NCBI GenBank assembly: GCA_964459725.1
Contig: CAYWNT010000001.1
Span: 27,529-91,528, forward strand
Direction: 5' to 3'
Source: an uncultured Gammaproteobacteria bacterium
GTDB lineage: Bacteria; Patescibacteriota; Patescibacteriia; Patescibacteriales; UBA12075
DNA: 64,000 nucleotides
The notes below the pieces were generated by a model. That model searched no databases. It worked only from the letters and a program-made list of their open reading frames with translations, and was not told where the DNA came from. Positions 11,262 through 59,011 of this stretch are shown one piece after another (position 1 is the first letter of the stretch; every line of letters starts with the position of its first letter). A program made the position numbers and the translations under genes.

Positions 11262-11365
11262 ACTTTGATGTTCTTTTTATTAAAAATAAATAAGGAGGTA
11301 ATTAAAAAGAAAAAGAGAGTAAGCAAAAGCAAGAAACCACTAAAATTACTTAAGGAGAATTGTTA

Positions 11366-27855: not shown

Positions 27856-28009
27856 TGAAATTTTTATGAATTCTTTATTTGACAAATTGCCTTGAAATAT
27901 TTTCTTGCATATGATAAAAAACAAGGTCAATATTTTTATAAATTACTTCAGCGCTTTTGATTGCAGTATTGATGAATTATTTAGCGTTTTATCAAGGGGG
28001 ACAAAAAAT

Positions 28010-37752: not shown

Positions 37753-39399
37753 ATGAACAAGGAGAAAAAACAAACAATAGTTAAAATAGTAAGATTTGGG
37801 TTTTTTTTGGTTTTTGCATTCGCCTCGTCCATGGGGGGGATTTTTTTAATTGTCTTGTCTATTACCAAAATTCACATTAGTCAAACCATGGATACTATTA
37901 TTTATTCGAATGCTTATATTGAAGATATAGAGGTTGGTGCCAGTAGAATCAAAGAGGTTGAACAATACTATAAAATCGGTCATTTGGTATCTTTTAACAC
38001 AGCATCATCTGCTACGTTGAGCAATGTAGAGAGGGAGGAGTTCTATTATGCTAAGGCAGAAAATATCTTTTCTGAAATAAAGGCTGAAATTTTATCAAAC
38101 CTAAGTAATATTAAAATAATACCTAAAATAGAAGACTCAATACTTGTTTCAACCGAAGAGGTGCAAGTAAAATTGACAGAGCTGGAACAGGCTAACTTAG
38201 AGTTGATTAACGAGTATCGAATTCATGGAAGCATGATCCAGGAAAAGATTGTGAACTTCGAAAGCAAACAAGAGGAGACAGTGAATGGCATAAAGGTTCT
38301 TAATAGAAAATTAAATGAGCAATACTTTGTAAAAGCCGGCAATATTAATAATTTTTTGGTGTTACTTTTGTATTTAAACGCTGTTATGGTGGTGATGATC
38401 ATTGGAATTGGCATGCTTTTTTCAAAATATTTCTCCGGAAGCGTAAAGGGAATGCTACTTAGTCCTATTGGAGAGATTAAAAATTCCTCAAAAGATATTA
38501 TTAATTTCTTGGTTAAAAATAAAGGAATATCAGCTAGAGCTTCTGAAGTTTCTCGGGATGTTGCCCAGGGAGCAATTAGACAATCTGAGAAATCAAAGGA
38601 AATTGCCTCTCTTATATCTGGTATAGCTCAATCTACAGAAAAAATGTCAAATTCAGCTGGAGGAGCAAGTGAATCCGCAGAGCATACTGCCAAAATTGCC
38701 AAAGAAGCAGAAATAAAGAGTAAGGATTCTCAAAAGAGCCTCGAAGATATTAAGAATATTGTATTGGGCACCTTGGAAATATCGCAAAGTATGTCAGATA
38801 AATCAGAAAAAATTAATAATATAGTAGAAGTAATAACAGGTATAGCCAAACAAACAAATTTACTAGCCCTAAACGCTTCTATTGAGGCTGCCAGTGCAGG
38901 TGAGGCTGGGAGAGGTTTTGCAGTTGTGGCTGAAGAGGTTAGAAAGTTGGCAGAAGAAGCAGATAAATCAGCTGGTGAAATAAGGTTGTTGGTTGATGAT
39001 CTAGCTACTGGTATTAGAGAGACAGTGGTTTCTGCCGAATCAGGAACAGATATTGTGACAAAGAGCACTAAGGAAATAAACAAAACCATAGAGGGGCTAA
39101 AAAGTGTTTCAGATTCAGTTTCAGGTGTGACAGGAAAAGTTGAGGAAGTGTCAGATATCGCTAAGGAACAAACCAAGGCCACAAGTGATATTTCTAAAAT
39201 TTTTGACTCAATTGCTGATGTGGCTAATCAAAATTCAGAAAATGCAAACAAGCTATTAGATATAGTGGGAGAATTGAATATTTCCAATAGTCAGATGTCA
39301 AAAGTGTCATCACAGGTAAAAGGCATGTCGGAAATATTAAAGGATTTGGTCTACAAGACTAAGAAAAAGTTTACCAAAGAACAGGGGGCTGGTAGTTAA
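37753..39399 (+). CDS. mcp: Methyl-accepting chemotaxis protein (two TM helices, ~170-aa extracytoplasmic sensor)
   Basis: Signalling hairpin tip [43 protein letters not shown]. Confidence 0.9.
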
Positions 39400-39432
39400 A
39401 AGAGTATATTTTTGGCATTTTTAGCAAAAAAA

Positions 39433-39441
39433 TGTTATAAT
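39433..39441 (+). promoter_or_regulatory. Extended -10 promoter element upstream of the second mcp
   Basis: TGtTATAAT 39433-39441, about 40 nt before the ATG at 39482. Confidence 0.5.
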
Positions 39442-39481
39442 TTTTTTACAAAGAATATTTATTATTTATTTTTATATTAAT

Positions 39482-41281
39482 ATGAAATTTTTAAAAAATT
39501 CAACGATTGGAAAGCAAATTATAACAGGCTCATCCTCTGTTTTTATTATCATTATTATTTTTCTAACCTTTATTATTTTTAATTTGGGTAGTTTAAAAGA
39601 TATTAACGCAAAAAAGTTTAAATCAGTAGAAGTCATGGAAGCTGTAAACAATGCTGAAGTTCTATTTCAGAGAATGTTTGCGGTTAATACAGAGTATGCA
39701 GAAAGCATGGTAAATTATCTTCAGGCATTAGAAAATTCAGAGAATGCCTATTCGGCAAATTTAAAATTGGAAAAATCAATAATTGACGGAGAAACAACAT
39801 TTAATCAAACTTACAAAGAATTTAAAGATGCAATAGTAAGTATAGATACTGCCTCAGTTAATACTGAGATCGATGGTAAGATAAAAGAACTTGATAGTAA
39901 GGTGACCACCTTTATTGAGAAAAAGAATGCCCTGTTGGCAACCTATAGAGCAAAAGATACAAGTGGGGCAACAATAAAAATGAACGAAATTGACGAAGCT
40001 GCAAAGAGCATTAACGCTGGTTTTGCTCAGATAGGAGAGAAATTGCAATCAAAAATTAACAAAGAAAATGAAATAGTAAAAAGTAAGATTAGTAATATTT
40101 TATTATTGCTCATTTTAGTGTTGGTGCTAAGTGTATTGGTTGGAGCACTGGTTACTTATTTTATAATTAGATCAATAAATGTTAAGATTTCCAATTCAAT
40201 CGATCAAGTTTCTGTTTCAGCAAATTCCTTAGCAACAGCTGCTCAGCAAACCAGTGCCAGCTCGCAACAAATTTCATCTATTTCTCAGCAATTAGCAGCA
40301 GGAGTTACTGAGCAGTCAAAGAGGGCTGGGGAAATATCGGGAGCAATTACAGCTATGGCCGGAGCAGCCCAGCAAATGTCAGCTTCAGCCCAGCAAGCCT
40401 CTTCAACAGCGGCTAGATCATCCAAGACTGCGCAAGAGGCGGGGCAAAACAGTGAAAAATCAATGAAAAGTTTAGGCAGCATAAAGAAAATCGTATCTAA
40501 CACAGCAGAAATGAGCAGGGGCATGTTTGATAAGTCTAAAAAAATAGGAGATATTGTTGAGTCAATTACAGCCATAGCTAAACAGACGAACCTGCTTGCT
40601 TTAAACGCTAATATTGAGGCTGCTAGAGCAGGTGAAGCAGGACGAGGATTTGCAGTGGTGGCTGATGAAGTTCGTAAATTAGCAGAAGGAGCGAGTGGCG
40701 CGGCTGATCAAATAAAATCATTGGTAACAGATATGGTATCTGGCATTGAAAACACGGCAAAAGTGGCCGAGTCAGGCACCAGGACGGTAGAGGAGGGTTC
40801 AAAGGTTATTGATGAAACAATTTCCGCTTTACAGAAAATATCATCTTCTTCAATGCAGGTTACAGCAAGTATTGGAGAATTGTCAGCCGGAATTCAGCAG
40901 CAAGCAGCGTCTACTCAGCAGATTGCTATGAATATGGATTCAATCGCCTCAATTACAGAGCAAAACTCTGCAGGGGCACAGCAGTTGTCTGCTTCAACCC
41001 AGCAACAAAGCGCAGCAAATCAGCAAATTGCATCAGCAGCTCAGCAGCTACAGTCTCTGGCGGCTGGTTTTATGAGCTTGGTTAGTCGAGGTAAAAAAGA
41101 AGATAAGGAGAAAAAAGATAATTTCAAAGATGAGGGAGAAGATAGTGATGACCTAGAAAGCTCTTCTCATGAGGAAAAAGAAGGAGTAGAAAAAGAGAAC
41201 CATGAGAACACCTCTTCTCAAGCTAATTCTGAAGAGAAGAAACAAGACAAAGAAAGTGGCGATAACAAAGAGAGCAATTAG
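39482..41281 (+). CDS. mcp: Methyl-accepting chemotaxis protein with an acidic low-complexity C-terminal tail
   Basis: [43 protein letters not shown], Gln/Ser/Ala-rich coiled-coil arms, and the tail [20 protein letters not shown]... Confidence 0.9.
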
Positions 41282-41342: not shown

Positions 41343-41924
41343 ATGTCCACACAAGATGAGCTAATAAAAAAAGTAGCAGATCAGGAGAGTAAAAAAAACG
41401 ATAAAGTTGAGGATTTTATTCAACTGGTTATTTTTGAGCTGGATAAGGAAGAGTATGCTGTGGAAATTACAGATTTGCAAGAGATTATAAATATTCCGGA
41501 AATTACACCTATTCCTAATGCTCCAAAATTTATAAACGGAATATTGAATTTACGCGGAAAAATAAGTGTTGTTGTTGATCTAGAAAAGAGATTTAACTTA
41601 GTAAGAGAGCATGAAAATCAAGATGATGGAAATGTAATAATCACCGAGGTGGATGATAATAGTTTTGGGGTTATGGTTGATAGGGTAAGCGAGATTATAT
41701 CAGTACCTAAGTCAAGTATTCAGTCAACTCCGGCATTGGTATCATCCAAGATTCATGCTGATTATTTAAAAGGGGTGGTGGTTATAGTCGATCAAGAAAA
41801 AAAGGAAAAAGAGGTGAAAAAGCAAGTTGGTTCAAGATTAATTATTCTTTTAGATTTACATAAAATGCTCCAAGAAAAAGAGCTTTTACAATTAGGAAAA
41901 TCAATAAAAGAAGTAGTTAAATAA
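41343..41924 (+). CDS. cheW: Chemotaxis coupling protein CheW
   Basis: 193 aa with FELDKEEYAVEITDLQEIINIPEITPIPNAPKFINGILNLRGK. Confidence 0.88.
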   Translation: MSTQDELIKKVADQESKKNDKVEDFIQLVIFELDKEEYAVEITDLQEIINIPEITPIPNAPKFINGILNLRGKISVVVDLEKRFNLVREHENQDDGNVIITEVDDNSFGVMVDRVSEIISVPKSSIQSTPALVSSKIHADYLKGVVVIVDQEKKEKEVKKQVGSRLIILLDLHKMLQEKELLQLGKSIKEVVK

Positions 41925-42000: not shown

Positions 42001-42360
42001 ATGGATACTAGTATAAAGATTTTACTTGCTGATGATTCAGCGTTTATGAGAAAAATCTTAAAAGACATTTTGGCCGAGGCCGGCTTTTCAGATTTTGTCG
42101 AAGCTTCTAACGGAAAAGAGGCCATAGAGAAGTTCGAGGTGGAAAGCCCGAGCTTGCTACTCTTAGATGTGGTCATGCCAGAGGTAGACGGAATTGCCGT
42201 GGTAAAAGAGTTAGGCAAGAAAGCAAGTGTGTTGATGGTTAGCGCAGTCGGGCAAGAAAGTGTTATTAAAGAAGCGATGGAACATGGCGCTAAGGGGTAT
42301 ATTGTTAAGCCCTTTGAGAAAGAAAAAGTGATTGAGGAGATAAAAAAAGTTTTAGAATAA
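42001..42360 (+). CDS. cheY: Chemotaxis response regulator CheY
   Basis: 119-aa single receiver with the acidic pair LADDS, phospho-acceptor LLLLDVVMP, MVSAVG and KGYIVKPF. Confidence 0.88.
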   Translation: MDTSIKILLADDSAFMRKILKDILAEAGFSDFVEASNGKEAIEKFEVESPSLLLLDVVMPEVDGIAVVKELGKKASVLMVSAVGQESVIKEAMEHGAKGYIVKPFEKEKVIEEIKKVLE

Positions 42361-42376: not shown

Positions 42377-43417
42377 ATGGCTCAAAATGATAAAATCAAG
42401 TTGCTTATTGTCGATGACAGTTTTTTGATGAGAAAAATCTTGATTGAATTATTGAGCGAAGAAGATGATATAGAAATAGTTGGAGAAGCCGCTGATGGTG
42501 AAGATGCTTTTTTGAAAACCAAGAGCTTGAGACCGGATATTATAACGATGGATTATAATATGCCCCTAATGAATGGCCTGGAAGCTATAAAGAAGATTAG
42601 AAGAGAGATGGATTATTTTCCGGCTATTATAATGATTTCTGCTAAGACCAGAGAGGGGGCAAATGACACTCTTGAGTGTATGCGCCAGGGGGCTATAGAC
42701 TTTATTCCAAAACCCTCGGGAGAAATATCAGTTGATATTAAAAGAGTATACAAGGAGTTGGTATTGAAAATCAGAACAGCTATAAAAGCAAGGGGAAAGA
42801 TAGGCAAAAAAGAAAAGAAAGAGGTAAAAGAGGCAAGTGAAAAATCAATCGAGGCCGTAGTTATTGGAGCGTCTACAGGTGGCCCGCCAGTAGTTGAAGA
42901 TATTATTAAAAGCGTGTCAATTACTAAAAAGGCAACTTTGTTGGTAGTGCAGCACATGCCTAGATATTTTACTTCCAGTTTGGCAAAAAGACTGGATAAA
43001 TTGTCTAAGATAGAAGTTCGAGAGGCAAAAGACGGTGAGGAGCTAGTTGGTGGCAGCTGTTTGATAGCTCCAGGTGGGAAGCATATGATGATCGTTAGGG
43101 ATAAGTCAAAAAAAGTGGTTGTTAATCTAACTGATCAGCCCTTAAGAAATGGATTTAGGCCATCGATAGACTATGCAATGGAGTCAGTTGCGCAAATCTA
43201 CAAAGAAAAAACCATGGGCATAATATTAACCGGGATGGGATTTGACGGCACTGATGGAATGGTGGAAATTAAAAATAAGGGAGGGTACACCATCGCTCAA
43301 TCCCCAGAGGAGGCTATCGTAGATTCAATGCCAGAATCAGCTATAGAAACAGGATCGGTTAATGAAGTTCTAGAAATCGAAAAAATAATAAAAAGAGTAA
43401 GTGAGTTATGCGCTTGA
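42377..43417 (+). CDS. cheB: Chemotaxis methylesterase/deamidase CheB (receiver plus esterase)
   Basis: Receiver (IVDDS...ITMDYNMP) plus a catalytic domain with GASTGGP. Confidence 0.9.
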   Translation: MAQNDKIKLLIVDDSFLMRKILIELLSEEDDIEIVGEAADGEDAFLKTKSLRPDIITMDYNMPLMNGLEAIKKIRREMDYFPAIIMISAKTREGANDTLECMRQGAIDFIPKPSGEISVDIKRVYKELVLKIRTAIKARGKIGKKEKKEVKEASEKSIEAVVIGASTGGPPVVEDIIKSVSITKKATLLVVQHMPRYFTSSLAKRLDKLSKIEVREAKDGEELVGGSCLIAPGGKHMMIVRDKSKKVVVNLTDQPLRNGFRPSIDYAMESVAQIYKEKTMGIILTGMGFDGTDGMVEIKNKGGYTIAQSPEEAIVDSMPESAIETGSVNEVLEIEKIIKRVSELCA

Positions 43418-43522: not shown

Positions 43523-45271
43523 ATGATAGATATCTCAAAATTTAAAGATTTATATATTTCCGAAACTGAAGACCAGTTGCAAATATTGAATAAAAATCTA
43601 CTTGTGCTGGAAAAAAGTATCAAGGGAAAAGATGGCAAGACAGACAAAAAGACTGTTCTAAATGATCTGATGCGAGCATCACACACTATAAAAGGTTCAT
43701 CAGCCACTATGGGATTTAATGATATGGCTTATTTGGCCCATGTTATGGAGGATGTTTTTGATAATGGAAGAAATGATCTGCTTGAATTGAATGAGGAAAT
43801 GGTAGATTATGCTTTTCGTTCAGCTGATAAATTGGAAGAATCATTAAATTCAGTAAAAGATAGCAATAAAGAATTGAAGTTGAAAAAACTAGCAGACAAA
43901 ATCAAGAATCTTACAGGTGTAGATACAACTGGTATTGGAAAATCTGCAAGAAATCAAGATGCCTCCGTAAAACCAGAAAATGAGACAGCGCCAGAAGTAG
44001 AAAAGTCTTCTGATGATTTAGAAAAAGAAGAAACTCTAAACAAAGACCTGGAAAAGACTGAAACAGATACTAAGAAAGATATAAATCACCCAAGTGAATC
44101 CACTGTAAAAATAAATCACATAAAAGTTCCAGTAAAACGATTAGACACCCTCATGGACTTGATTGAAGAGTTGGTAATTGAAAAAATGGCATTACGACGA
44201 TTAAGTGTTGACAATAAAGACCTAAAAGAGGTGGTTGATCGCACTAATTTGCTAATACAAAGCTTGGAATATGAAGTTATGCAAGCTCGTTTGGTTCCTG
44301 TAGATCAGATATTTGCTCGTTTTCCGCGCATGATACGTGATTTGTCAAAAGCGCAAGGAAAGAATGTTGACTTCCGTCTTGATGGTGGAGAATTAGAGTT
44401 GGACAGAACAATTGTAGACAAGCTTGGAGAGCCATTGGTACACCTACTTAGAAATGCTATTGACCATGGAATATCCAAGGAAGGTTATGTAAAGTTGATG
44501 GCTAAGAGGGATAGAGAAAATGCTGTGATTATTGTAGAGAATGATGACAAGTCTATAGATCTAGAAGAGGTAAAAGTATCAGCCGTGAAAAGAGGGATTG
44601 TAAGTGATAAGGAGTTGGAAAGTTTTACAGATGAGCAAGTTATAGATTTAATTTTTCATCCTAAATTATCGACCAACAAAGAGGTAACAGAGATATCGGG
44701 TCGTGGTATAGGTTTAAATGTAGTAAAAAAGTTTGCAGAATCTTCAGGAGGAAAAGTAATAGTTGAAAATATCAATCCCGGTGTTAGATTTACATTGAAT
44801 CTACCCTTAACCTTGGCTATAATCAATTCTTTGTTGGTAGAGGTGGGAAATAATATTTACGCTATTCCATTTGCAAACATTGATCGATCAATAATTGTTG
44901 AGCCAAAAAATGTGAAGAAAATGGCTGATAAGAATGTGGCCATAGTAGACGAAGACAAGGTTCCCTTGATAGATTTAAGAAATGTTTTTGGCAGCGAGGA
45001 GGAAGTCGAAAAAAGCGATGCTAAAGAAGTAGAGGGAGAAAAAAATGCCAACGATTTAGTAAATAATAATTTGATCACTGTTGTTATTAAAAGCGGGAAA
45101 GAGCGAGTTGGACTGGTGGTTGATAAATTAGCCAGCGAACAAGAGGTTACAGTGAAGCCCTTGTCCTCTGTTTTAAAAAGCATAAAAGGTTTTTCAGGGT
45201 CAACTATCCTGGGAGATGGTAGGACGATATTGATATTGGATGCCGGGAGCTTGTTAGAAACAATAAAATAA
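43523..45271 (+). CDS. cheA: Chemotaxis histidine kinase CheA (divergent ATP-binding G1 box)
   Basis: Hpt motif SHTIKGSSATMGF, N box HLLRNAIDHG, G2 box SGRGIGLNVV and a C-terminal CheW-like domain. The G1 position reads ENDDKSID instead of the EDDGxGID type. Confidence 0.88.
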   Translation: MIDISKFKDLYISETEDQLQILNKNLLVLEKSIKGKDGKTDKKTVLNDLMRASHTIKGSSATMGFNDMAYLAHVMEDVFDNGRNDLLELNEEMVDYAFRSADKLEESLNSVKDSNKELKLKKLADKIKNLTGVDTTGIGKSARNQDASVKPENETAPEVEKSSDDLEKEETLNKDLEKTETDTKKDINHPSESTVKINHIKVPVKRLDTLMDLIEELVIEKMALRRLSVDNKDLKEVVDRTNLLIQSLEYEVMQARLVPVDQIFARFPRMIRDLSKAQGKNVDFRLDGGELELDRTIVDKLGEPLVHLLRNAIDHGISKEGYVKLMAKRDRENAVIIVENDDKSIDLEEVKVSAVKRGIVSDKELESFTDEQVIDLIFHPKLSTNKEVTEISGRGIGLNVVKKFAESSGGKVIVENINPGVRFTLNLPLTLAIINSLLVEVGNNIYAIPFANIDRSIIVEPKNVKKMADKNVAIVDEDKVPLIDLRNVFGSEEEVEKSDAKEVEGEKNANDLVNNNLITVVIKSGKERVGLVVDKLASEQEVTVKPLSSVLKSIKGFSGSTILGDGRTILILDAGSLLETIK

Positions 45272-45355: not shown

Positions 45356-45967
45356 ATGACTGACAAAAAAATAGATGATTTGCAGCTTGATCAGCTAAAG
45401 GAGATTGTAAACATAGGCGCTAGTCATGCCTCAACCGCACTTTCTCAGATGATAAATGAGAAGGTGGATTTGACCGTACCAGAAGCTTATGTGGATGAAA
45501 TTCACAACATAAATAAGTATGTCAAAGGGAAGACAGAAGAAGTTGTTGCAGCATTATTAAAAATTTATGGTGATGCTAGCGGAGTAATGTTTTTTATGTT
45601 TGATCAAGGTGATGAGCAAAAATTAGCTAAAACACTTGTGAGAGGACTTATAGATGAAAAAAACAGAAAAGAACTAGAAATGTCCGCTATTGGTGAGATG
45701 GCAAACGTTTTGGCCGGAGCTTCACTAACTGCTTTTTCCAAGTTTTTGAATATGAATTTGCTTCATACTGTTTCAAATATTGTTGTAGATACTGTTGATT
45801 CTATTACAAATTCTGTGGCAGTGGAGATAGGCAAAACAACCGGAAGAGCCTTGGTTTTTCAGGTAAATTTCGAAATAAATAAAATAGGAGTAAAGACAAA
45901 TTTTCTTTTCTTCTTTGATCCTAGTGCTACAAAAAAAATACTAGAAGCTATTAAGAATAAATATTAA
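45356..45967 (+). CDS. cheC: CheC-family CheY-P phosphatase
   Basis: 203 aa with LDQLKEIVNIGASHASTALSQMI and a second ELEMSAIGEMANVLAGA repeat. Confidence 0.8.
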   Translation: MTDKKIDDLQLDQLKEIVNIGASHASTALSQMINEKVDLTVPEAYVDEIHNINKYVKGKTEEVVAALLKIYGDASGVMFFMFDQGDEQKLAKTLVRGLIDEKNRKELEMSAIGEMANVLAGASLTAFSKFLNMNLLHTVSNIVVDTVDSITNSVAVEIGKTTGRALVFQVNFEINKIGVKTNFLFFFDPSATKKILEAIKNKY

Positions 45968-45978
45968 AATATATAATT

Positions 45979-46461
45979 ATGGCCAAAGATATCAAAATCA
46001 ATACCGGGGAGATGGTGGTAAGCGAGGCTCCAACAAAAATAACTACGACAGGAATAGGATCTTGCGTTTTTATTTGTGTTTATGATGACCAGGCTAAAGT
46101 CGGCGGAGCTATTCATGCTATGATTCCCAGCAGGAGTGGTGGTAAAAAAAATAATCTACCAGTTGTTGGAGAGGACAAAAACTCAAGTAAGTATGTTGAT
46201 GAGGCAATTGTTAAGCTCGTCAATAAAATAGTTCAACAAAAAGGAAAAAAAGAAAACTTGAAAGCCAAAATGGTTGGCGGAGCAAGTATGTTTCAAGTTT
46301 TTAGCAATAGTAATATCGGGCGAGAAAATGTAAAAACTGCCGAGCAAATTTTGCAATTATTAAAAATTCCCATAAAAAACAAGTCTGTTGGAGGAAAAGT
46401 GGGAAGGAGTGCAGTGTTTAATTTGAATAATGGAGTAGTTGAAGTTGCAATGAAGATGTAA
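45979..46461 (+). CDS. cheD: Chemoreceptor glutamine deamidase CheD
   Basis: 160 aa with TTGIGSCVFICVYD...GGAIHAMIP. Positioned next to cheC. Confidence 0.8.
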   Translation: MAKDIKINTGEMVVSEAPTKITTTGIGSCVFICVYDDQAKVGGAIHAMIPSRSGGKKNNLPVVGEDKNSSKYVDEAIVKLVNKIVQQKGKKENLKAKMVGGASMFQVFSNSNIGRENVKTAEQILQLLKIPIKNKSVGGKVGRSAVFNLNNGVVEVAMKM

Positions 46462-46504: not shown

Positions 46505-46873
46505 ATGCGTGTTCTTGTAATTGAAAATAATGACATATTGAAAACTGTTTATGAGTCAGAACTTCATCAGCAGAATATAGTTGTAGATCTGGCCTCGGAC
46601 GGAGAAGAAGGTTTTGAGATGGCAAAAAAGAATAAACCAGATTTGATTGTGACTGAACTTATTTTGCCAAAAGTCAATGGTTTTGATTTTTTAAAAAAGA
46701 TAAAAAAAGATAAAAAGTTAAAAGATGTAAAGGTTTTAATCACATCCATACTTTCACAGAAAAATGATGTGGAAGAAGCAAAATCGCTTGGGATTTATAA
46801 GTATTTACAAAAAGATATATATTCACAAAAGCAGGTGGTTGAAGAAATATTAAAAATATTAATGAGCTCTTAA
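46505..46873 (+). CDS. Single-domain receiver protein with Glu in place of the phospho-acceptor Asp
   Basis: 122 aa with the receiver fold (VLVIENND...PDLIVTELILPKVNG...VLITSIL...YLQKD). Codon GAA 46655-46657 (E51) aligns with the conserved Asp of DLILLD-type beta3. Confidence 0.75.
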   Translation: MRVLVIENNDILKTVYESELHQQNIVVDLASDGEEGFEMAKKNKPDLIVTELILPKVNGFDFLKKIKKDKKLKDVKVLITSILSQKNDVEEAKSLGIYKYLQKDIYSQKQVVEEILKILMSS

Positions 46874-46920
46874 GTGTACAAGACTTAAGAGATTATATTA
46901 GTCTTGAATAGGAGGAAGTT

Positions 46921-48612
46921 ATGAAGTTAACTAATAATCAGCTAAAAATTCTATTATTGGGATCAAATCTGATCCCCTATGAAAAACTGGAAATGGCAGT
47001 AAAGGAGGCTGATAAAAAAAAGCTATCATTATTGGATTATCTGCCATCTACCCTACTTGTATCATCTGAACAATTGGGGAGGATTGTGGCCGATGAATTA
47101 AAGATTAGTTTTGTAGATTTAAAAGAGGAAAAACTTGATGAAAAATTATTACATTTAATTCCGGAAAGAGTAGCTAGGGCAAAAGGTGTAATCGTCTTTG
47201 GCACAACCGGCAATATGGCCAAGGTGGGAATGACTGATCCGGAAGATATTGAAACTAATCACCTGGTTCAAAAAAAGATAGGCAAAAGGGTTATTCCTTA
47301 TTATATTACCAAGCAGGACTTGGAGTATGCACTATCAAAATACAAAGGAAGTGTACAGGATAAGTTTAAAAAAATATTAAAAGAGATAAATAGTAAGTCA
47401 ATATCCTCTGTTAAAAAGGATGAGATAACCGTAAAGATTGTTGACATGATTTTGGAATATGGATATCAGAGTAAGGCTTCTGATATTCATGTCGAACCAT
47501 TTACTAATGAAATAATGATTCGTTTTAGGGTTGATGGAATACTACATGATGTTTTAAATATCCCAAAAGAATTATTAGAGCTCATATTATCAAGAATAAA
47601 GATTATGTCTAAGATGAGGACGGATGAACATAGAGATGCTCAGGACGGTAAAATTAAGTTCAAGACTGCCCTGGAGGATCTGGATATTCGTGTGTCTATA
47701 TTGCCTACATCTGAGGGGGAAAAGGTAGTGATGCGTTTGCTTTCTTCTAAGAATAAGACATACGGTTTGTCTGACTTGGGACTTTCGTCTAACAACTTGG
47801 CAATCGTAAATAATACTATAAAAAATCCCCATGGTATGATCTTGGTGACTGGTCCCACTGGAAGTGGTAAAACAACGACTATTTACGGTGTATTAAAGAT
47901 ATTAAACAGAAGAGAGGTAAATATTTCTTCAATCGAAGATCCGGTTGAGTATAATATTGACGGAGTAAATCAGATTCAGGTAAACAATAAAACAAATTTA
48001 ACTTTTGCTAGAGGTTTGAGATCGATATTAAGACAAGATCCTGATATTATCATGATCGGAGAGATCCGTGATGAAGAGACGGCTGCTATAGCTGTAAATT
48101 CTGCCTTGACCGGTCACTTGGTTCTCTCTACGCTGCATACCAATGATGCAGCCACCACTCTCCCCAGGTTTTTAGAAATGGGCATCGAGCCTTTTTTAGT
48201 TTCATCAACTGTAAATGTGGCTATAGCCCAAAGATTGGTTAGAAAGATATGTAAAAAATGTATCACATCATACAAGATCACCGAAGATGAAGTAAGAATT
48301 ATAAAAAGAAGTAAAAAAATTCAAGAATATTTAAAAATTGAAGGATATAAAGATATAGAAAATTTGAGGTTATATAAGGGTATAGGATGTCAGGTTTGTG
48401 GGAACACCGGATTTTCAGGTCGAGTAGGAATTTTTGAAGTTTTGGAAATGACCGAGGAAATAAGGGAATTAGTAATAAGTAGGGCTAGTAGTGATGATAT
48501 TTTAAGAGTAGCTGAAGCAAATGGTATGATCGTCATGCTTCACGATGGCGTAAGAAAAATATTCGAAGGTGTTACCACTCTTATGGAGGTAGCTAGAGTT
48601 ACTGCTAAATAA
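46921..48612 (+). CDS. pilB: Type IV pilus assembly ATPase PilB (GspE family)
   Basis: 563 aa with SD aggagg, Walker A GPTGSGKTTT, an Asp box, Walker B, a tetracysteine CKKC...CQVC and an N-terminal GspE_N/MshEN-like domain. Confidence 0.92.
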   Translation: MKLTNNQLKILLLGSNLIPYEKLEMAVKEADKKKLSLLDYLPSTLLVSSEQLGRIVADELKISFVDLKEEKLDEKLLHLIPERVARAKGVIVFGTTGNMAKVGMTDPEDIETNHLVQKKIGKRVIPYYITKQDLEYALSKYKGSVQDKFKKILKEINSKSISSVKKDEITVKIVDMILEYGYQSKASDIHVEPFTNEIMIRFRVDGILHDVLNIPKELLELILSRIKIMSKMRTDEHRDAQDGKIKFKTALEDLDIRVSILPTSEGEKVVMRLLSSKNKTYGLSDLGLSSNNLAIVNNTIKNPHGMILVTGPTGSGKTTTIYGVLKILNRREVNISSIEDPVEYNIDGVNQIQVNNKTNLTFARGLRSILRQDPDIIMIGEIRDEETAAIAVNSALTGHLVLSTLHTNDAATTLPRFLEMGIEPFLVSSTVNVAIAQRLVRKICKKCITSYKITEDEVRIIKRSKKIQEYLKIEGYKDIENLRLYKGIGCQVCGNTGFSGRVGIFEVLEMTEEIRELVISRASSDDILRVAEANGMIVMLHDGVRKIFEGVTTLMEVARVTAK

Positions 48613-48643: not shown

Positions 48644-49735
48644 ATGAGCAATCCTAAAAACAAAAAAAGCATACTGGATTTGGATATTAGCATTGGTAAA
48701 GTAAGCTTAGAGCAAAAAATAGCTTTTATAAAACACTTGGCAGTGATGTTGAAGTCCGGCTTGACCATTTCTGAGGCCTTGGAGATTGTTTATGATCAAA
48801 CTGGCGGCAAGTTGAAAAAAATTGTCGGCACCATAAGACTATCTGTAGAGTCAGGCAATTCTTTATCTGCTTCTTTGGGAAAATATCCTAAAGTTTTTTC
48901 TTCTATTTTTGTAAACACAGTGTACGTTGGTGAATCCTCAGGAACTATGGATGAGAATTTAGAAGGTTTGTCTCAGTACTTAAAAAAAGACAAAGAGCTC
49001 ATTGACAAGATAAAGGGAGCAATGTTTTACCCGATAATTGTATTGATTTTGGCAGGCGTGCTTGGATTGGCAATGGCTTTTGTAGTGTTGCCAAAAATAA
49101 CTCCACTTTTTGAGGGGTTAGGAATTGATTTGCCTGTTACCACTAGGGCGCTTATCTCTTTTTCATCAATTATTCAGGAGTATGGCAAAGAGTTGTTTGC
49201 TGGAATTGCTGCTTTTGTGTTTTTGGTGTTGTGGTTGGTTAAGCAAAAATTTTCACAACCCGTTACTCATTATTTGATATTGAAAACACCCATCATTAAA
49301 AATATTGCTATCAATAAGAATTTAACTGTTTTTTCTTCTACCCTGGGAACTTTGCTAAAAAGTGGTTTAAATATTGATGAGGCTTTGAGAATTACAAAAG
49401 ATACTGTAAATAATTATTATTTTAAAAAGGCCTTATCCGAAGCGGAGATGAAAGCTAGGCAGGGAGTAAAGTTGTCTGAGATTTTACAAAGATCAGGCAA
49501 ACTTTTTCCATCCTTATTAATTAATATGACGAAGATTGGTGAGAATTCTGGAAGGCTTGAGGAGACATTGTTCTATCTTTCAGAATATTTTGAAACTGAA
49601 GTAAATAACACAACCAAAAAGCTATCCACCGCAATTGAGCCGATGTTATTAATATTTATTGGTTTGATGGTGGGAGGATTGGCCTTGTCTATTATTACCC
49701 CTATTTATAAACTAACAGGTAATGTACAAAGATAA
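48644..49735 (+). CDS. pilC: Type IV pilus platform protein PilC (GspF family)
   Basis: 363 aa with two T2SSF repeats and three TM segments. It follows pilB directly. Confidence 0.9.
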   Translation: MSNPKNKKSILDLDISIGKVSLEQKIAFIKHLAVMLKSGLTISEALEIVYDQTGGKLKKIVGTIRLSVESGNSLSASLGKYPKVFSSIFVNTVYVGESSGTMDENLEGLSQYLKKDKELIDKIKGAMFYPIIVLILAGVLGLAMAFVVLPKITPLFEGLGIDLPVTTRALISFSSIIQEYGKELFAGIAAFVFLVLWLVKQKFSQPVTHYLILKTPIIKNIAINKNLTVFSSTLGTLLKSGLNIDEALRITKDTVNNYYFKKALSEAEMKARQGVKLSEILQRSGKLFPSLLINMTKIGENSGRLEETLFYLSEYFETEVNNTTKKLSTAIEPMLLIFIGLMVGGLALSIITPIYKLTGNVQR

Positions 49736-49766: not shown

Positions 49767-49794
49767 CACCAGCTTTCAGCTGGTGTTTGTGTTT
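49767..49794 (+). terminator. Rho-independent terminator after pilC
   Basis: Stem caccagc/gctggtg followed by tttgtgttt. Confidence 0.6.
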
Positions 49795-50210: not shown

Positions 50211-50696
50211 ATGATTCATAAAAGGTGTTTTAAAAAATATGCTAGCAATAAAGGTTTTACGCTCCTGGAGTTATTAATTGTAATTGGTTTAACAGTGTCT
50301 ATTGTTGCTGTTTCAGTACCAATGTATGAAAATTTGCACACCTCTACTAAATTGGATGAGGGTTTGGCTCAAATAATGTCAGAGATCAGGTTGGCAAGAG
50401 AAAAGAGTATGGCAGGAATTAATAATGAAGGTCATGGAGTGTATTTTGATCCCGGAAACAATAAGTTGGTTCAATTTGAAGGGGCATCTTACGCTGCCAG
50501 AAATACAGATAACGACAGAGAGTTGATTGTAGATTCTAATATTATCATGTCAACGACGATTGTTTTTAACGAAATAAATTTTGAGAGAGGAAATGGCGTA
50601 CCAGATGCTGTCGGTCAAGTAGAATTATCGCTAAATGAAAAGTCCAGAACTATAGAGATCAATGACTTTGGAATAGTTTTAGAAATTAATGAGTAA
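50211..50696 (+). CDS. Prepilin-type N-terminal cleavage/methylation domain protein (minor pilin, GspH/FimT-like)
   Basis: The leader ends in ...SNKG|FTLLELLIVIGLTVSIVAV. Confidence 0.8.
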   Translation: MIHKRCFKKYASNKGFTLLELLIVIGLTVSIVAVSVPMYENLHTSTKLDEGLAQIMSEIRLAREKSMAGINNEGHGVYFDPGNNKLVQFEGASYAARNTDNDRELIVDSNIIMSTTIVFNEINFERGNGVPDAVGQVELSLNEKSRTIEINDFGIVLEINE

Positions 50697-50699
50697 TGT

Positions 50700-51737
50700 A
50701 TGTTTCATAACCTGTTAGACTCTTTTAAATCTGTAGTACAAAAAAATATTATTAAGCAGTCTTTGGGTGGTAATAATTCTGGAAATTCAATTATAGAAAT
50801 AGTTATTGCATTGGCTATTTTTATTTTGATATCATCATCTTTGGCCAGTGTTATTATGGGAAGTTATAATATTTATAATCGTCAATCAGAGATAATTGAA
50901 GCAGGTATTTTGGCAAAGTCAGGAATTGAGGCTACAAGATTTATAAAGGATAATAAATGGAACAATTTGATATATGATCAAAGTGCTGTTTCTCTAATTA
51001 GCGACACTTGGGAATTCTTGGGCGAGGGCACAACAGAGCAAATTGGAGATTATAGTCGAGTAATTAATTTTTTTGATATTTATAGAGATGAGAATGGCGC
51101 TGTAGTTCCACAAGCCTCATCAAGCGAGGGGGGAGTGTATCTTGATGTACACAGTAAGCGAGTGGAAGTAGTTGTTGGTTGGGAAGTTGGAGGAGGAGAA
51201 ATTTTGGAAATAAAAAACGAATCTATATTTTCTAATTGGAGTAGATCGATTTGGAATCAGGATGACTGGTCTGGAGGAGGTGGCCAGAGCTTATGGGGTG
51301 ATGATGATCGTTATTTTAGCGATGATGGAAATATTGATATTGCTTCAGGAACTATTCTTTTGAAAGAAACTGGTACAACTAGTTTAGCGGTTCTAGGATC
51401 CATTGAGTCGTCTGCCTTTCAAATTGAAGAGAATAGAAATTATAATGTGGTAGAGTGGTCAGCAACCTCTACTAAGACAGGTCCTTGTCCGGAATGTGAA
51501 GCAAGAGTATGGATAAAAACAGCTCCTGATTCTTCAGGTGTCCCTGGGGTATGGACATCAACCTGGTCAGGACCAGATGGTGATGACGGTGATGAAGTTG
51601 ACTATTTTGCAACATCAACTGGGTCTTTGATAAGTACTGACCACGATGGTGATCGATGGCTTAAATATAAAATAGAGCTTATTGGAAATGGAACCCACAC
51701 CCCGTCATTTGAAGAGATGAAAATAAGTTATAATTAA
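50700..51737 (+). CDS. Pilin-like protein with a large C-terminal domain
   Basis: N-terminal GNSIIEIVIALAIFILISSSL (Glu at +5 of the hydrophobic helix), 345 aa, located in the pilin operon. Confidence 0.55.
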   Translation: MFHNLLDSFKSVVQKNIIKQSLGGNNSGNSIIEIVIALAIFILISSSLASVIMGSYNIYNRQSEIIEAGILAKSGIEATRFIKDNKWNNLIYDQSAVSLISDTWEFLGEGTTEQIGDYSRVINFFDIYRDENGAVVPQASSSEGGVYLDVHSKRVEVVVGWEVGGGEILEIKNESIFSNWSRSIWNQDDWSGGGGQSLWGDDDRYFSDDGNIDIASGTILLKETGTTSLAVLGSIESSAFQIEENRNYNVVEWSATSTKTGPCPECEARVWIKTAPDSSGVPGVWTSTWSGPDGDDGDEVDYFATSTGSLISTDHDGDRWLKYKIELIGNGTHTPSFEEMKISYN

Positions 51738-51759
51738 TAGCTCTGCAAGAAAGTGTTAA

Positions 51760-52278
51760 ATGAAAATTAAAAGCAAAAGAAAAAAAAGAGGCTTTACCAT
51801 CGTAGAAACATTAGTCTACATTGCTTTAATATCTGTTGTCCTCGGAAGTTTTGTAAGTTTCGGTGTATATATGGCCGATCTTCGCGTGAAGGCTGCTGCA
51901 ATTCAGACAGTTGAGGAATCTGCTATGATTTCACTAAACTTGATTTCTTCTCATATCAAAAGATCTGACAGTATAGTAATACCCGCCCCTGGAGATGAGG
52001 CAACTAGTACTTTGTATCTTGATATGCCGGACGGTAATAGTGATATTATTTATTCATTAGAAAATGGAATTTTATATATAACCGAAGGGGCAGCGAGCGC
52101 TGTACAGTTAACAGGAGATGGAATAGAGATTCTGGATTTGTCTTTCAACAATATTGCCAAATTAAATCAGCAAGATAGTATATATATTAATATGGATATG
52201 CACAGAAGGAACGCTATAAATAAAGCCTATGAATATAGCAATAGTTATCAAATAAATCTAACGAAACGAATAAGGTAA
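51760..52278 (+). CDS. Prepilin-type N-terminal domain protein (minor pilin)
   Basis: KKRG|FTIVETLVYIALISVVLGSF. Confidence 0.75.
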   Translation: MKIKSKRKKRGFTIVETLVYIALISVVLGSFVSFGVYMADLRVKAAAIQTVEESAMISLNLISSHIKRSDSIVIPAPGDEATSTLYLDMPDGNSDIIYSLENGILYITEGAASAVQLTGDGIEILDLSFNNIAKLNQQDSIYINMDMHRRNAINKAYEYSNSYQINLTKRIR

Positions 52279-52303
52279 TTTTAGAACTAACTTAGTTTAA
52301 AAA

Positions 52304-52714
52304 ATGAATAACTACCACAGAATACAAAAAAACAAAAAAGGAGCAGCTGCAATATTTACTATTGTAATAATTGGAGCAGCCTCCTTAATTATGGTAAAAA
52401 GTGTTGCCTTTCTTAGTCTGTCTAGTTTAGAAATGGTGGATATTTCTAGGAATAGCGAGAGTGTTGCCTATGTAACTGAGGGGTGTGCTGAAGAAGCACT
52501 GAGAAGATTAATGACTGATAATAGTTACGTAGTTACTGATAATAATTTTTCTTATGGCGATGGTTCTTGTGTTTTAAATGTATCACAAGGAGGCGGAGAT
52601 GTGACAATAGAAAGTGTAGGAACACTTAATTCATACGTGAAAAAAATAAATATTGAACTCACCATAAGTGACGAAGAAATTGATATAAATAAATGGGAGA
52701 GTGTTGATATATAA
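52304..52714 (+). CDS. PilX-like small pilus protein
   Basis: N-terminal KKGAAAIFTIVIIGAASLIMV hydrophobic helix, 136 aa, located in the pilin operon. Confidence 0.45.
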   Translation: MNNYHRIQKNKKGAAAIFTIVIIGAASLIMVKSVAFLSLSSLEMVDISRNSESVAYVTEGCAEEALRRLMTDNSYVVTDNNFSYGDGSCVLNVSQGGGDVTIESVGTLNSYVKKINIELTISDEEIDINKWESVDI

Positions 52715-52717
52715 CTA

Positions 52718-54943
52718 ATGAAATTTTCTACTAGTAAAAATTCAATAGGTGTAAATATTTCAGACCACAGCATAAAGATGGTGGAGTTGTCTTATGCTAA
52801 TGGGCAAGCAAAGATTGTCAATCATTCGCATGTAGTCTTGGAGGTTGGCATTGTTAAACATGGTCGAATAATAAATGAGGAAAAATTAACAAAATTATTC
52901 AAGGAGGCCCTACTGAAAGCTAGCCCTAAATCTATAAAGGCAGATGAAATTTATTTTGCTATCCCGGAGCGTCAAGCCTATTCGCATGTTTTTAACATAG
53001 ACGCTGAAAAAGAAAATGAAATTAACAACCTGGTTAAAGAAGAGGCTTTAAATAGCATTCCATTAAACAGAGAGGATTTGATTTATTCTTTTAAAATTGT
53101 AGAAAAATGTAAGAAATTGATTGTCCCGGAAGAAGATGGGATAGAGGCAGAGACTAAGAGCATGATGATAACCGCTGATGACACTGATTCACAAGGCGAA
53201 AAAAAGGTAATAGAAAAAAATAAGATTAGAATTTTAATATCTGCAGTTGACAGAAATGTAATTGATGAATGGAGATTATTTTTTGAAAAAAATAATATAA
53301 AAATTAAGCATTTTGACTTAGAGCTAATCTCAACTTTTAGGGGTTTCTATAAGAGCTTCCCTGAAAAGCCAGTTTGTCTGGTGGATATAGGTGCCAATAA
53401 TACAAATATTGGAATATTTTCAAGGGGTGGTTTGACCTACTCACACACTCTAAATGTTGCTGGAAATTTTTTCACCAAGAAGCTTTTGGATGGAATAAAC
53501 AGTCTAGAGGAAGATAAAAAATATACACATGAGCAAGTCGGTAAACTAAAAAGACAAATCGGTATGTTGTCTACTGGTTCACAAAATGATGTAGCTGTTA
53601 TATTAAAAAGTGCTGTTTTGTCGATTATTGATGAAATTTCAATTGCAGTCAAATATTACAATAAGTATACAGGGAAAATAATAAATAATATTGTTTTTGT
53701 TGGCGGTTCAAGCAAGATCAATGGATTGGTTGATTATATAAAGGCGAATTTATCAGGATTGAAATATGAATTAAAAATAGTTGATAAAGAAGAAGGGGAA
53801 AAAGAGAAAAAAGAAATAGAATTTAAGTTGGGGGCTCCCGTCATGTCGAATGCTCCAATAGAACTAGCAGAGGCCATAGGACTTGCTATTCAAAAATATG
53901 ACAAAAATTGGCAAAAACAAGCCATAAAATTACCTCTAGAGTTTGATATGGAGGGTTATGATGAAGTGAAAAAAACCAAGCCAAAGGAAGATGGGCAGGA
54001 AAGTGAAGGAGATGAGCGAGCTGGCAAAACAACTTGGATAAAAGAGCATATGAGAGAGTTTCAGTTGATAGTTATTTTACTTATCGGTGTCATGGCTGTT
54101 GGTTGGGCTTTTTGGTATAGGGGGCATAGTGCTAAACAGAGATTATTGGCTCTAAAGCAAGATAAAAAATATGAAAAGAGTATCGATATCAGCGTAAAGA
54201 TGGGAACCGATATTTCTAGTTATACAAAAGAAAATATACGGGGAAGAATTTTCAAGGATGATTTTGATGAGCCGTATAAATATGATGAGCTTTTAGAAAA
54301 AAGCATAGCCAATGCCAGAATTAAAACAAAGAAAGGAGAAATATTGTGGGAAGAAAATTTAAGCATAACTAAAGAGGATTCACTTATTTTTCCCCTGACT
54401 GTAGAGTGGTTGATTTATAATGAGAAAGACGCAGGGGTAAAATTTATATCCAAGGCCAAGGAGTCACATGGTAATAATGATGATTTTGAATTTAAGAATT
54501 TTGCATTTCAAAATTTAGAAAAAAAGAAGGGGGATTATTATTTGGTTGGAGTAGTCAATATAATGACCAAAGAAGATCCTGGAAAAGTCACAGCGGGAGA
54601 GGTAGAAAAGGATATTGTTTCAGATGGAGCAGGGGATAAAGAGAAAGATAAAAATGAACAAGAAGATGAAAATTCAGAACCCGTTACTGAGGAGATAAAA
54701 TCTATTGCTGACTTAAGCAAGTTATTTGCCAAGTCAAAATTAGGTTTTGTATCTATTGATGACTCTGGATTAGAGTGGCTCAATGCTAGAAGCGGTCCGG
54801 GAACCAATAATCAAATAGTAGATAAAATATACCCAGGAAATGTGTATGAGTTAATAGAGGCACAAGAGGAGTGGTTGAAAATTAAAATTTCTGAAGATAA
54901 AGAAGGTTGGGTATTTAGAGAATATGCCAGTATTTTAGAGTAG
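52718..54943 (+). CDS. pilM: PilM-like actin-fold pilus assembly protein fused to a TM segment, an extracytoplasmic region and a C-terminal SH3b domain
   Basis: N-terminal IGVNISDHSIKMVEL..., VDIGANNTNIGIF and VFVGGSSKINGL (actin-like ATPase motifs). TM helix FQLIVILLIGVMAVGWAFWY. C-terminal LNARSGPGTNNQIVDKIYPGNVYELIEAQEEWLKIKISEDKEGWVF (SH3_3-like). Confidence 0.75.
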   Translation: MKFSTSKNSIGVNISDHSIKMVELSYANGQAKIVNHSHVVLEVGIVKHGRIINEEKLTKLFKEALLKASPKSIKADEIYFAIPERQAYSHVFNIDAEKENEINNLVKEEALNSIPLNREDLIYSFKIVEKCKKLIVPEEDGIEAETKSMMITADDTDSQGEKKVIEKNKIRILISAVDRNVIDEWRLFFEKNNIKIKHFDLELISTFRGFYKSFPEKPVCLVDIGANNTNIGIFSRGGLTYSHTLNVAGNFFTKKLLDGINSLEEDKKYTHEQVGKLKRQIGMLSTGSQNDVAVILKSAVLSIIDEISIAVKYYNKYTGKIINNIVFVGGSSKINGLVDYIKANLSGLKYELKIVDKEEGEKEKKEIEFKLGAPVMSNAPIELAEAIGLAIQKYDKNWQKQAIKLPLEFDMEGYDEVKKTKPKEDGQESEGDERAGKTTWIKEHMREFQLIVILLIGVMAVGWAFWYRGHSAKQRLLALKQDKKYEKSIDISVKMGTDISSYTKENIRGRIFKDDFDEPYKYDELLEKSIANARIKTKKGEILWEENLSITKEDSLIFPLTVEWLIYNEKDAGVKFISKAKESHGNNDDFEFKNFAFQNLEKKKGDYYLVGVVNIMTKEDPGKVTAGEVEKDIVSDGAGDKEKDKNEQEDENSEPVTEEIKSIADLSKLFAKSKLGFVSIDDSGLEWLNARSGPGTNNQIVDKIYPGNVYELIEAQEEWLKIKISEDKEGWVFREYASILE

Positions 54944-59007: not shown

Positions 59008-59011
59008 ATTT

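Follow-up and report, generated by a model that had tools for sequence, protein, structure and literature searches.

Receiver domains that have lost catalytic residues have been grouped as pseudo-receivers or aspartate-less receivers (ALR) (Bourret et al. 2025, PMC12632262, citing Maule et al. 2015). In this class the phospho-acceptor Asp (D position) is most often replaced by Glu, which can mimic the phosphorylated state, and Asn is likewise the commonest replacement at the second residue of the metal-binding acidic pair (DD2). Of 20 atypical regulators characterised in bacteria, only two are non-orphans, and the mechanisms by which pseudo-receivers are activated or inactivated have been termed 'a mystery' (PMC12632262). 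In Synechocystis, the response regulator PixG binds the pilus extension ATPase PilB1 only when phosphorylated (PMC11181946). The single-domain protein EmvR of Xanthomonas oryzae binds to PilB and inhibits the ATPase activity of the latter (PMC11973254), and DrdR of X. campestris, which consists of a pseudo-receiver and a receiver, binds both PilB and PilT (PMC13507683). The present work deals with a gene at positions 46505-46873 of a 64-kb stretch of contig CAYWNT010000001.1 (the whole stretch is called the window in what follows), which encodes a single-domain receiver with Glu at the acceptor position and lies between a set of chemotaxis (che) genes and pilB. As judged from its sequence and by the definition of PMC12632262, the protein is a pseudo-receiver, lacking both the acceptor Asp and the acidic DD2. 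Our preferred interpretation, to which we assign a probability of about 0.5, is that it acts independently of phosphorylation and that its contact with PilB is probably fixed in an activated-like state by the Glu.

The gene and the codons of its diagnostic residues are located as follows:

46505..46873, plus strand: single-domain pseudo-receiver gene, 122 aa, Glu at the acceptor position (translation, Pfam PF00072, AlphaFold2 (AF2) model, Foldseek)
46655..46657, plus strand: codon GAA for Glu51, the phospho-acceptor position (D57 of E. coli CheY) (alignments, codon check)
46523..46528, plus strand: codons of Glu7-Asn8, the metal-binding acidic pair DD1/DD2, with a non-acidic DD2 (alignments)
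46745..46750, plus strand: codons of Ser81 (conserved T/S) and Ile82 (T+1, bulky, not Ala, Gly or Ser) (alignment, column statistics)
46802..46816, plus strand: codons of Tyr100 (switch aromatic), Leu-Gln, Lys103 (conserved K) and Asp104 (replacing the cis-Pro) (alignment, column statistics)

The protein matched Pfam Response_reg (PF00072) with 73 bits (E = 2.8e-20, cutoff 30.2) over residues 3-111. This was its only Pfam domain, and no PATAN domain, coiled coil or other additional domain was found. No named NCBIfam model reached its cutoff (CheY_Halo scored 45 bits, the cutoff being 200). The AF2 model, for which an alignment of 13 family sequences was used as input, had a mean pLDDT of 95.3 and the canonical (beta-alpha)5 architecture with five strands and five helices. 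Its top Foldseek matches in the PDB were the receivers RpaA, RR468, Spo0F and CheY4 (TM about 0.9), and the structure of the PhoB D10A/D53E mutant (2jb9) was also among the matches.

Residue correspondences were derived from phmmer comparisons with PDB chains (DivK, RR468 and a CheY) and from a MAFFT alignment with E. coli CheY, Spo0F, the CheY encoded in the window and the receiver of the window's CheB. An earlier note on this DNA, made from the letters alone, had described a 122-aa receiver between the che genes and pilB, with Glu in place of the acceptor Asp, a degenerate N-terminal acidic pair and retained Ser and Lys residues. This description held up in each of its parts: translation of the open reading frame (ORF), Pfam score and gene order agreed on the receiver, and D12/D13, D57, T87, Y106 and K109 of E. 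coli CheY corresponded to Glu7/Asn8, Glu51, Ser81, Tyr100 and Lys103, respectively. Glu51 was also aligned with the acceptor Asp of Spo0F (D54), DivK and RR468. Of the residues expected in a canonical receiver, the acceptor Asp and the acidic DD2 were thus missing, and Ser81 and Lys103 were present. The statement that CheY (42001) and the CheB receiver are canonical was likewise borne out, both carrying the full DD/D/S/K set in the MAFFT alignment. Asp104 occupies the site of the usual cis-Pro after Lys103; a residue other than Pro at this position (K+1) was found throughout the wider group of Patescibacteria-like receivers. Asp10 lies two residues past the acidic pair. The K+2 residue is Ile105, and a residue of this type is reported to bias CheY toward active conformations (PMC12632262).

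An initial protein search returned 16 relatives with 50-72% identity, mostly with Glu at the acceptor position and two with Asp; the organism names attached to them were Parcubacteria and Patescibacteria only. A profile search extended the set to about 120 proteins. Two motifs characterise the family, SELHQ[QE]NI at the end of alpha1 and K[DE]xYSxKQ in the beta5-alpha5 region. Among the 85 motif-bearing members, all from Patescibacteria, the acceptor residue was Asp in 45, Glu in 39 and Gly in one (P0208), a 45:39 ratio of Asp to Glu that is biased by a query profile built mostly from Glu-type sequences. The earlier note had asked whether orthologues in related che-pil clusters also carry Glu. 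Many of them do, and the family is split, with about half of the recovered members keeping Asp in a fully canonical site. The Q/E alternation in SELHQ[QE]N was considered as a deamidation/methylation site for CheD/CheB, of the type found in methyl-accepting chemotaxis proteins (MCPs), and rejected, as the flanking consensus of small residues was absent and Q or E at position 23 tracked phylogeny, not the acceptor state.

Three further searches were less productive. Among the best 150 hits of a profile search of protein representatives nearly all were multi-receiver hybrids, whose summed scores outranked single domains, and the useful ones were P0024, P0008 and P0107. A scan of genome contigs yielded five loci, with a bias introduced by one pattern that demanded Glu; it provided a Saccharibacteria locus (L001). 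A scan of metagenome contigs was dominated by the generic receiver pattern and gave no close orthologues; its 80 loci were reused as background for active-site residues and for the adjacency of receiver and pilB genes.

The codon GAA is one nucleotide away from GAT and GAC, and Glu51 could in principle stem from a point mutation private to this strain, from an error in sequencing or from decay of the gene. The probability of this is negligible. The Glu-type members, 39 in number and 47-72% identical to the window protein, use both GAA and GAG, the Asp-type orthologues have GAT, and the flanking codons have diverged. The earlier note had named uniform Asp among the orthologues as the sign of such a mutation, and 39 of 85 members have Glu. 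The ORFs are intact and lie in conserved synteny. Pairwise dN was 0.2-0.5 and dN/dS, where computable, about 0.11-0.28, ratios that are rough since synonymous sites were saturated in most pairs; they indicate that the receiver gene is under purifying selection.

The more distant receivers from Patescibacteria-like contigs all had the canonical E/D-D...D...S/T...K pattern. A neighbour-joining tree was calculated with the three active-site columns removed and was rooted on these distant receivers. The reconstructed state of the root was Asp, in 40 of 40 bootstrap replicates as well, and the Glu-type proteins fell into two nested clades. The sequences thus robustly favor Asp as the ancestral state and Glu as a derived state at the level of lineages. 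The number of independent D-to-E events was not resolved by the trees, in which between 2 and 6 state changes were counted across the bootstraps.

Replacement of the acceptor was accompanied by changes at three other positions of the active site. According to the column statistics, DD2 was Asp in 97% of the Asp-type members, whereas in the Glu-type members it was Glu (30%), Lys (28%) or Asp (15%). The fourth residue after the acceptor (D+4) was Pro in 97% of the Asp-type, and Pro (48%) or Thr (38%) in the Glu-type members. T+1 was Ala or Ser in 82% of the Asp-type proteins, and Ile (25%), Ser (25%) or Ala (15%) in the Glu-type proteins. In the Glu clades the acidic pair proceeds from DD to DE and on to DG, DS or EE, and the clade of the window protein reaches DN, DT, DY, DK, EK and EN. 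DD2, D+4 and T+1 serve in Mg2+ binding, in shaping the beta3-alpha3 turn and in access to the acceptor, respectively (PMC12632262). Their relaxation after the D-to-E change is therefore the expected signature of lost metal binding and phosphotransfer, and it leads us to infer strongly, from sequence, that the Glu-type protein is not phosphorylated. A receiver that still works, with phosphorylation at Glu51 or elsewhere or with a metal site of altered geometry, could draw on the remaining DD1 (Glu7), Ser81 and Lys103, and perhaps on Asp10. We consider this very unlikely, because the decay of DD2, the D+4 Pro and T+1 is specific to the Glu-type clades, because no gene for a partner kinase lies beside the Glu-type receivers of Saccharimonadales in the two loci inspected (see below), and because loss of any one of the five catalytic residues places a receiver in the non-catalytic class (PMC12632262).

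Other parts of the protein were strictly maintained. In the family as a whole, both types included, the Ser was retained in 97%, the Lys in 100% and Tyr or Phe at the switch position in about 96-99% of the members, and in the Glu-type members alone Ser81, Lys103 and Tyr100 stood at 94-100%. Ser81, Lys103, Gly59, Phe60, Leu83 and Asp88 were invariant or nearly so in Glu-type proteins, and Tyr100 remained Tyr or Phe. At a number of surface positions (E19, Q22, N24, N58, K67, E91, S107, K109 and Q110) conservation was 94-100% in the Glu-type and exceeded that in the Asp-type. In bacterial pseudo-receivers generally, T, K and the switch aromatic are kept in about 65-70% (PMC12632262). The strict retention of Ser, Lys and Tyr suggests, at the level of sequence, continued use of the switch network; retention of Ser and Lys is compatible with, and does not prove, engagement of both by the carboxylate of Glu51. 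With the switch residues and the surface positions conserved under purifying selection, a role in protein-protein contacts appears to have remained.

Such a role could also be that of a pseudo-receiver for localisation or scaffolding, or of one responding to another input (a ligand, partner switching or its own abundance), similar to FrzS or ShkA, and the Glu would then be incidental. Mechanisms of this kind have been reviewed, including cases in which the residue at the D position is immaterial (PMC12632262). The alpha3-beta4-alpha4 surface of FrzS recruits SgmX, with the result that type IV pili are activated, and the single Gly-type member (P0208) hints that a carboxylate may be dispensable. 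We nevertheless regard this explanation as unlikely: it does not account for the retention of the switch residues at levels well above those of bacterial pseudo-receivers or for the finding that 39 of the 40 non-Asp members have specifically Glu, and the protein has no extra domain, such as a coiled coil or PATAN.

The genes surrounding the receiver gene in the window, in the order MCP-MCP-CheW-CheY-CheB-CheA-CheC-CheD-receiver-PilB-PilC by Pfam, followed by pilins and a PilM-SH3 fusion, are:

37753..41281, plus strand: two methyl-accepting chemotaxis protein genes (37753-39399 and 39482-41281) (Pfam MCPsignal, 135 and 145 bits)
41343..41924, plus strand: cheW (Pfam CheW, 115 bits)
42001..42360, plus strand: cheY, canonical (DD, D, S, K-P) (Pfam Response_reg, 92 bits; alignment)
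42377..43417, plus strand: cheB, canonical receiver and methylesterase (Pfam, alignment)
43523..45271, plus strand: cheA with Hpt, dimerisation, HATPase and CheW-like domains (Pfam)
45356..46461, plus strand: cheC (45356-45967) and cheD (45979-46461), directly 5' of the pseudo-receiver gene (Pfam CheC/CheX, CheD)
46921..48612, plus strand: pilB, extension ATPase with N-terminal MshEN, 47 nt 3' of the pseudo-receiver gene (Pfam T2SSE, 419 bits, and MshEN)
48644..49735, plus strand: pilC, platform protein (Pfam T2SSF, 202 bits)
49767..49785, plus strand: GC-rich terminator-like hairpin with T tail, 3' of pilC (consensus scan; the number of sites was not above that in shuffled sequences)
50211..54943, plus strand: pilin-like genes (50211-50696 and 51760-52278), two unassigned ORFs and a pilM-SH3 fusion (52718-54943) (Pfam N_methyl, PilM_2, SH3_3)

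The best NCBIfam match of the pilB product was TIGR02538 (PilB), with 524 bits, below the cutoff of 676. The hairpin at 49767-49785 is likely to mark the end of a che-receiver-pilBC transcription unit.

In all 11 independent loci besides the window the slot between CheC/CheD and PilB-PilC was occupied by a receiver, of Glu type in L006/L007, L008/L009, L010, L013, L014/L015 and L096 and of Asp type in L011, L012, L097 and L098. Since both types are found in the identical slot, they are orthologues. Wherever downstream sequence was available, PilB-PilC followed 3' of the receiver in the same orientation, and spacings of 1-20 nt or stop/start overlaps were frequent. The sequence of L012 stops just past the receiver gene, L097 has a Bro-N gene between receiver and pilB, and L013 has neither cheB nor cheD, yet the order CheC-receiver-PilB is kept. 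Within the clusters the number of CheC copies varies: three tandem paralogues were found in L006 (3824-9466), which also has two CheY genes, one of them encoding a D-N acidic pair, two in L008 and one in the window, with no clear tie between copy number and Asp/Glu state.

Receiver genes were also found next to pilB outside this family. Of the 80 metagenome loci (L016-L095), with receivers 32-47% identical to the query, 66 had enough downstream sequence, and in 17 of these a single-domain receiver gene lay directly upstream of pilB(-pilC); all 17 receivers had the canonical Asp. Stop/start overlaps were common in these pairs and che genes often absent, as in L026 (3320-5445), L049 (7986-10125) and L086 (7989-10132). 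An adjoining CheA was present in just one of the 17 (L060), in the order CheA-receiver-PilB without cheC or cheD between. A separate family, from Saccharimonadales, adjoins pilB-pilC-pilin genes in divergent orientation (L001 9962-10363, L099 6001-6414, L100 4989-6432). The acceptor residue is Glu in ten of its 23 close members, and several members with Asp have a non-acidic DD2. In the Asp-type locus L100, the one fully canonical locus inspected, a histidine kinase gene (HisKA/HATPase) lies directly upstream of the receiver gene, whereas no kinase gene occupies this place in L099 and L001, both of Glu type, and no che gene was detected in the loci inspected. Across these families pilB is the constant neighbour and the upstream neighbour varies (CheD, CheC, CheA, histidine kinase or nothing). 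The conserved adjacency, together with the precedents cited above, makes PilB the most likely partner of the receiver, by analogy. The residues exclusive to pilB-adjacent receivers were A40 and Y106 only and were uninformative.

The same neighbourhood can be read in favor of a partner within the Che pathway. The protein could be a phosphate-blind decoy that docks on CheA (P1/P2) or on CheC/CheD, mimicking CheY or its phosphorylated form, and that tunes the flow of phosphate to CheY and CheB or the CheC-CheD adaptation system without acting on PilB. In B. subtilis, phosphorylated CheY promotes formation of the CheC-CheD complex, and in nearly every locus the receiver gene comes directly after cheC-cheD. 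Family-specific positions in alpha1, the usual kinase-docking surface of receivers, are more conserved in the Glu-type. We consider a decoy unlikely for the following reasons. The receiver-pilB arrangement persists without cheD and cheB in L013 and without cheC and cheD between CheA and PilB in L060, receivers upstream of pilB are common where che genes are missing, and the Glu-type receivers of Saccharimonadales adjoin pilB in loci where neither a neighbouring kinase gene nor a che gene was detected. In addition, the alpha1 residues are unlike those of the co-encoded CheY, which is obliged to dock on the same CheA.

The earlier note had suggested either a phosphorylation-independent, 'on-like' adaptor between the chemosensory array and PilB or a phosphate-blind competitor of CheY; this reading is partly supported, namely by the relaxation of the phosphorylation site and by the Glu in orthologues. 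Returning to the preferred interpretation, in which the Glu-type protein contacts PilB independently of phosphorylation, the following course of events can be envisaged. The ancestor would have been a second response regulator, capable of being phosphorylated, in a chemosensory/type IV pilus operon of Patescibacteria, and as a second substrate of CheA it would have gated PilB. In the Asp-type relatives, phosphorylated CheA would control the contact between receiver and PilB, as phosphorylated PixL does for PixG and PilB1 in Synechocystis. In the lineage of the window protein no phosphoryl group would be accepted from CheA: Glu51 stands in for the acceptor Asp, Asn8 would remove a Mg2+ ligand and Ile82 would narrow access to the site. 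With Ser81, Tyr100, Lys103 and positions in alpha1, alpha4 and alpha5 kept, the protein would act by protein-protein contacts. Its contact with PilB would be independent of the kinase and would probably involve an activated-like conformation brought about by the Glu carboxylate; this "on-like" conformation is inferred by analogy. The canonical CheY (42001) and CheB would be left as the sole phospho-outputs of CheA.

Several observations weigh against this interpretation. The receiver gene is packed equally tightly to cheD and to pilB, so that adjacency cannot tell a Che partner from PilB. A weak hairpin is found in the window 3' of the receiver gene, ahead of pilB: it has a 9-bp AT-rich stem (46867-46891), spans the receiver stop codon, with a weak T-containing tail behind it, and could partially uncouple the expression of pilB from that of the che genes. 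This hairpin is not conserved, the gaps between receiver and pilB in the orthologues being merely 1-23 nt. The alpha1 residues Y16, S18, E19, Q22 and N24 are family-specific and as conserved in the Glu-type or more so, which could mean, as far as sequence conservation can tell, that docking on CheA has been kept. Nor does Glu act as a phosphomimic in every case, such an effect having been disproved for some pseudo-receivers (PMC12632262). The parallel with loss of the kinase gene in Saccharimonadales comes from one Asp-type and two Glu-type loci, a small sample, and the Asp:Glu ratio carries the search bias mentioned above. Compared with the wider Patescibacteria-like receivers, and with the receiver-pilB group without che genes, the che-linked family also shows charge reversals at the surface (E19 versus K, E91 versus K or R, K99 versus D or T, E114 versus K), which suggest a distinct partner surface, so that this family and the receiver-pilB group without che genes need not have the same partner.

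Tentatively, the receiver-pilB pairs may represent a dedicated Patescibacteria module, in which the receiver is a regulatory subunit of PilB that became Glu-locked independently in several lineages. If this were true, host-dependent ultrasmall bacteria would have shifted repeatedly from signal-gated to constitutive pilus extension. The che-pil operon would then have kept CheA though its receiver takes no phosphate, and the Glu-type loci of Saccharimonadales would be those without a neighbouring kinase gene.

A few other features of the window deserve mention. The pilin/pilM stretch (50211..54943) matches the orthologous loci in gene order, and the PilM protein with C-terminal SH3_3 fusion (52718-54943, 741 aa) was also found in L006, L008, L096 and L098. 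No CheR domain was detected in the large ORFs (at least about 90-110 aa) of the 64-kb window, and none is listed for the orthologous che clusters (L006, L008, L096-L098). A methylesterase/deamidase set of CheB and CheD without a nearby methyltransferase is unusual. Some 13 kb upstream of the che-pil cluster the window encodes a ComEC homologue (22608-24098, Competence and DUF4131), as would fit uptake of DNA by way of pili. An ORF of 2736 aa (27905-36115) had no Pfam match at E <= 0.001. A serine recombinase ORF (819-2564; Resolvase, Recombinase and Zn-ribbon) nominally overlaps a tRNA-Ile on the minus strand (2472-2547) with the uncommon anticodon TAT, and this overlap may represent an integration site or the boundary of a mobile element. 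An Rfam scan of the window yielded tRNA only. Genes for an AcrB-type RND (resistance-nodulation-division) transporter and an HlyD-type membrane-fusion protein (55744-60769) and for a protein with a PEP-CTERM motif (11360-12112) were present in what appears to be a Patescibacteria genome; such components are usually tied to diderm envelopes.

Several percent of all receiver domains are pseudo-receivers, and a specialist in two-component systems would not be surprised by one of this kind. The novelty lies in the family and in where it is found: in Patescibacteria a stand-alone, non-orphan pseudo-receiver is encoded between cheD and pilB, in a slot that in other loci holds Asp-type orthologues. 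A literature search found no description of a Patescibacteria che-pil operon or of a receiver-pilB gene pair, and a detailed paper on the Saccharibacteria pilus mentions no regulator. Pili serve Patescibacteria in host attachment and DNA uptake, and from this locus their type IV pili would seem to be under chemosensory control, on which it offers a first handle in ultrasmall episymbiotic bacteria. The matched natural pairs of Asp- and Glu-type orthologues offer a system for asking how pseudo-receivers work, in terms of phosphotransfer, conformation and control of the PilB ATPase, and the order of decay after the D-to-E change (DD2, D+4, T+1) can be read from the tree.

When compared with known systems, the window protein shares with pseudo-receivers the PF00072 match, the loss of two catalytic residues out of five, a Glu at the D position, Asn at DD2 and a T+1 residue that is no longer small. 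It differs from most of them in being a stand-alone, 122-aa non-orphan encoded in an operon with CheA, and from their average in the far stricter retention of T, K and the switch Tyr and in having Asp-type orthologues in the same slot. From CheY it is distinguished by the missing acceptor Asp, the canonical CheY being the co-encoded protein (42001-42360). The arrangement resembles that of PixG and PixH (Tax1) and of PixE in Synechocystis, where a chemotaxis-like kinase and two response regulators control pili and one of the regulators binds the extension ATPase (PMC11181946; bioRxiv 10.1101/2021.06.11.447907). However, PixG is a PatA-type protein (PATAN plus receiver), whereas the window protein lacks both the PATAN domain and the acceptor Asp, and its link to PilB comes from gene adjacency alone. 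EmvR and DrdR, compared here by description only, are likewise output-less receiver proteins, bind PilB and change ATPase activity, and DrdR even includes a pseudo-receiver. In contrast to the window protein, EmvR has a functional Asp59, DrdR has two receivers of which the C-terminal one is phosphorylatable, and both are orphans encoded neither beside pilB nor in a che operon. FrzS of Myxococcus xanthus, whose receiver (2gkg) was among the PDB sequence matches to the window receiver (E = 1.2e-7), and the FimX receiver of Pseudomonas/Xanthomonas also lack the Asp and regulate the assembly or polarity of type IV pili. Unlike the bare window receiver, FrzS has a long coiled coil and acts via SgmX/MglA, and FimX is a protein of about 700 aa (REC-PAS-GGDEF-EAL, REC being the receiver domain) that acts with PilZ and cyclic di-GMP. 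The combination of a D-to-E change at the acceptor with loss of an acidic-pair residue recalls PhoB D10A/D53E (2jb9), which is constitutively active; that protein is a laboratory mutant of a DNA-binding regulator, whereas the change in the window protein is natural, conserved, located in a single-domain protein and known from sequence.

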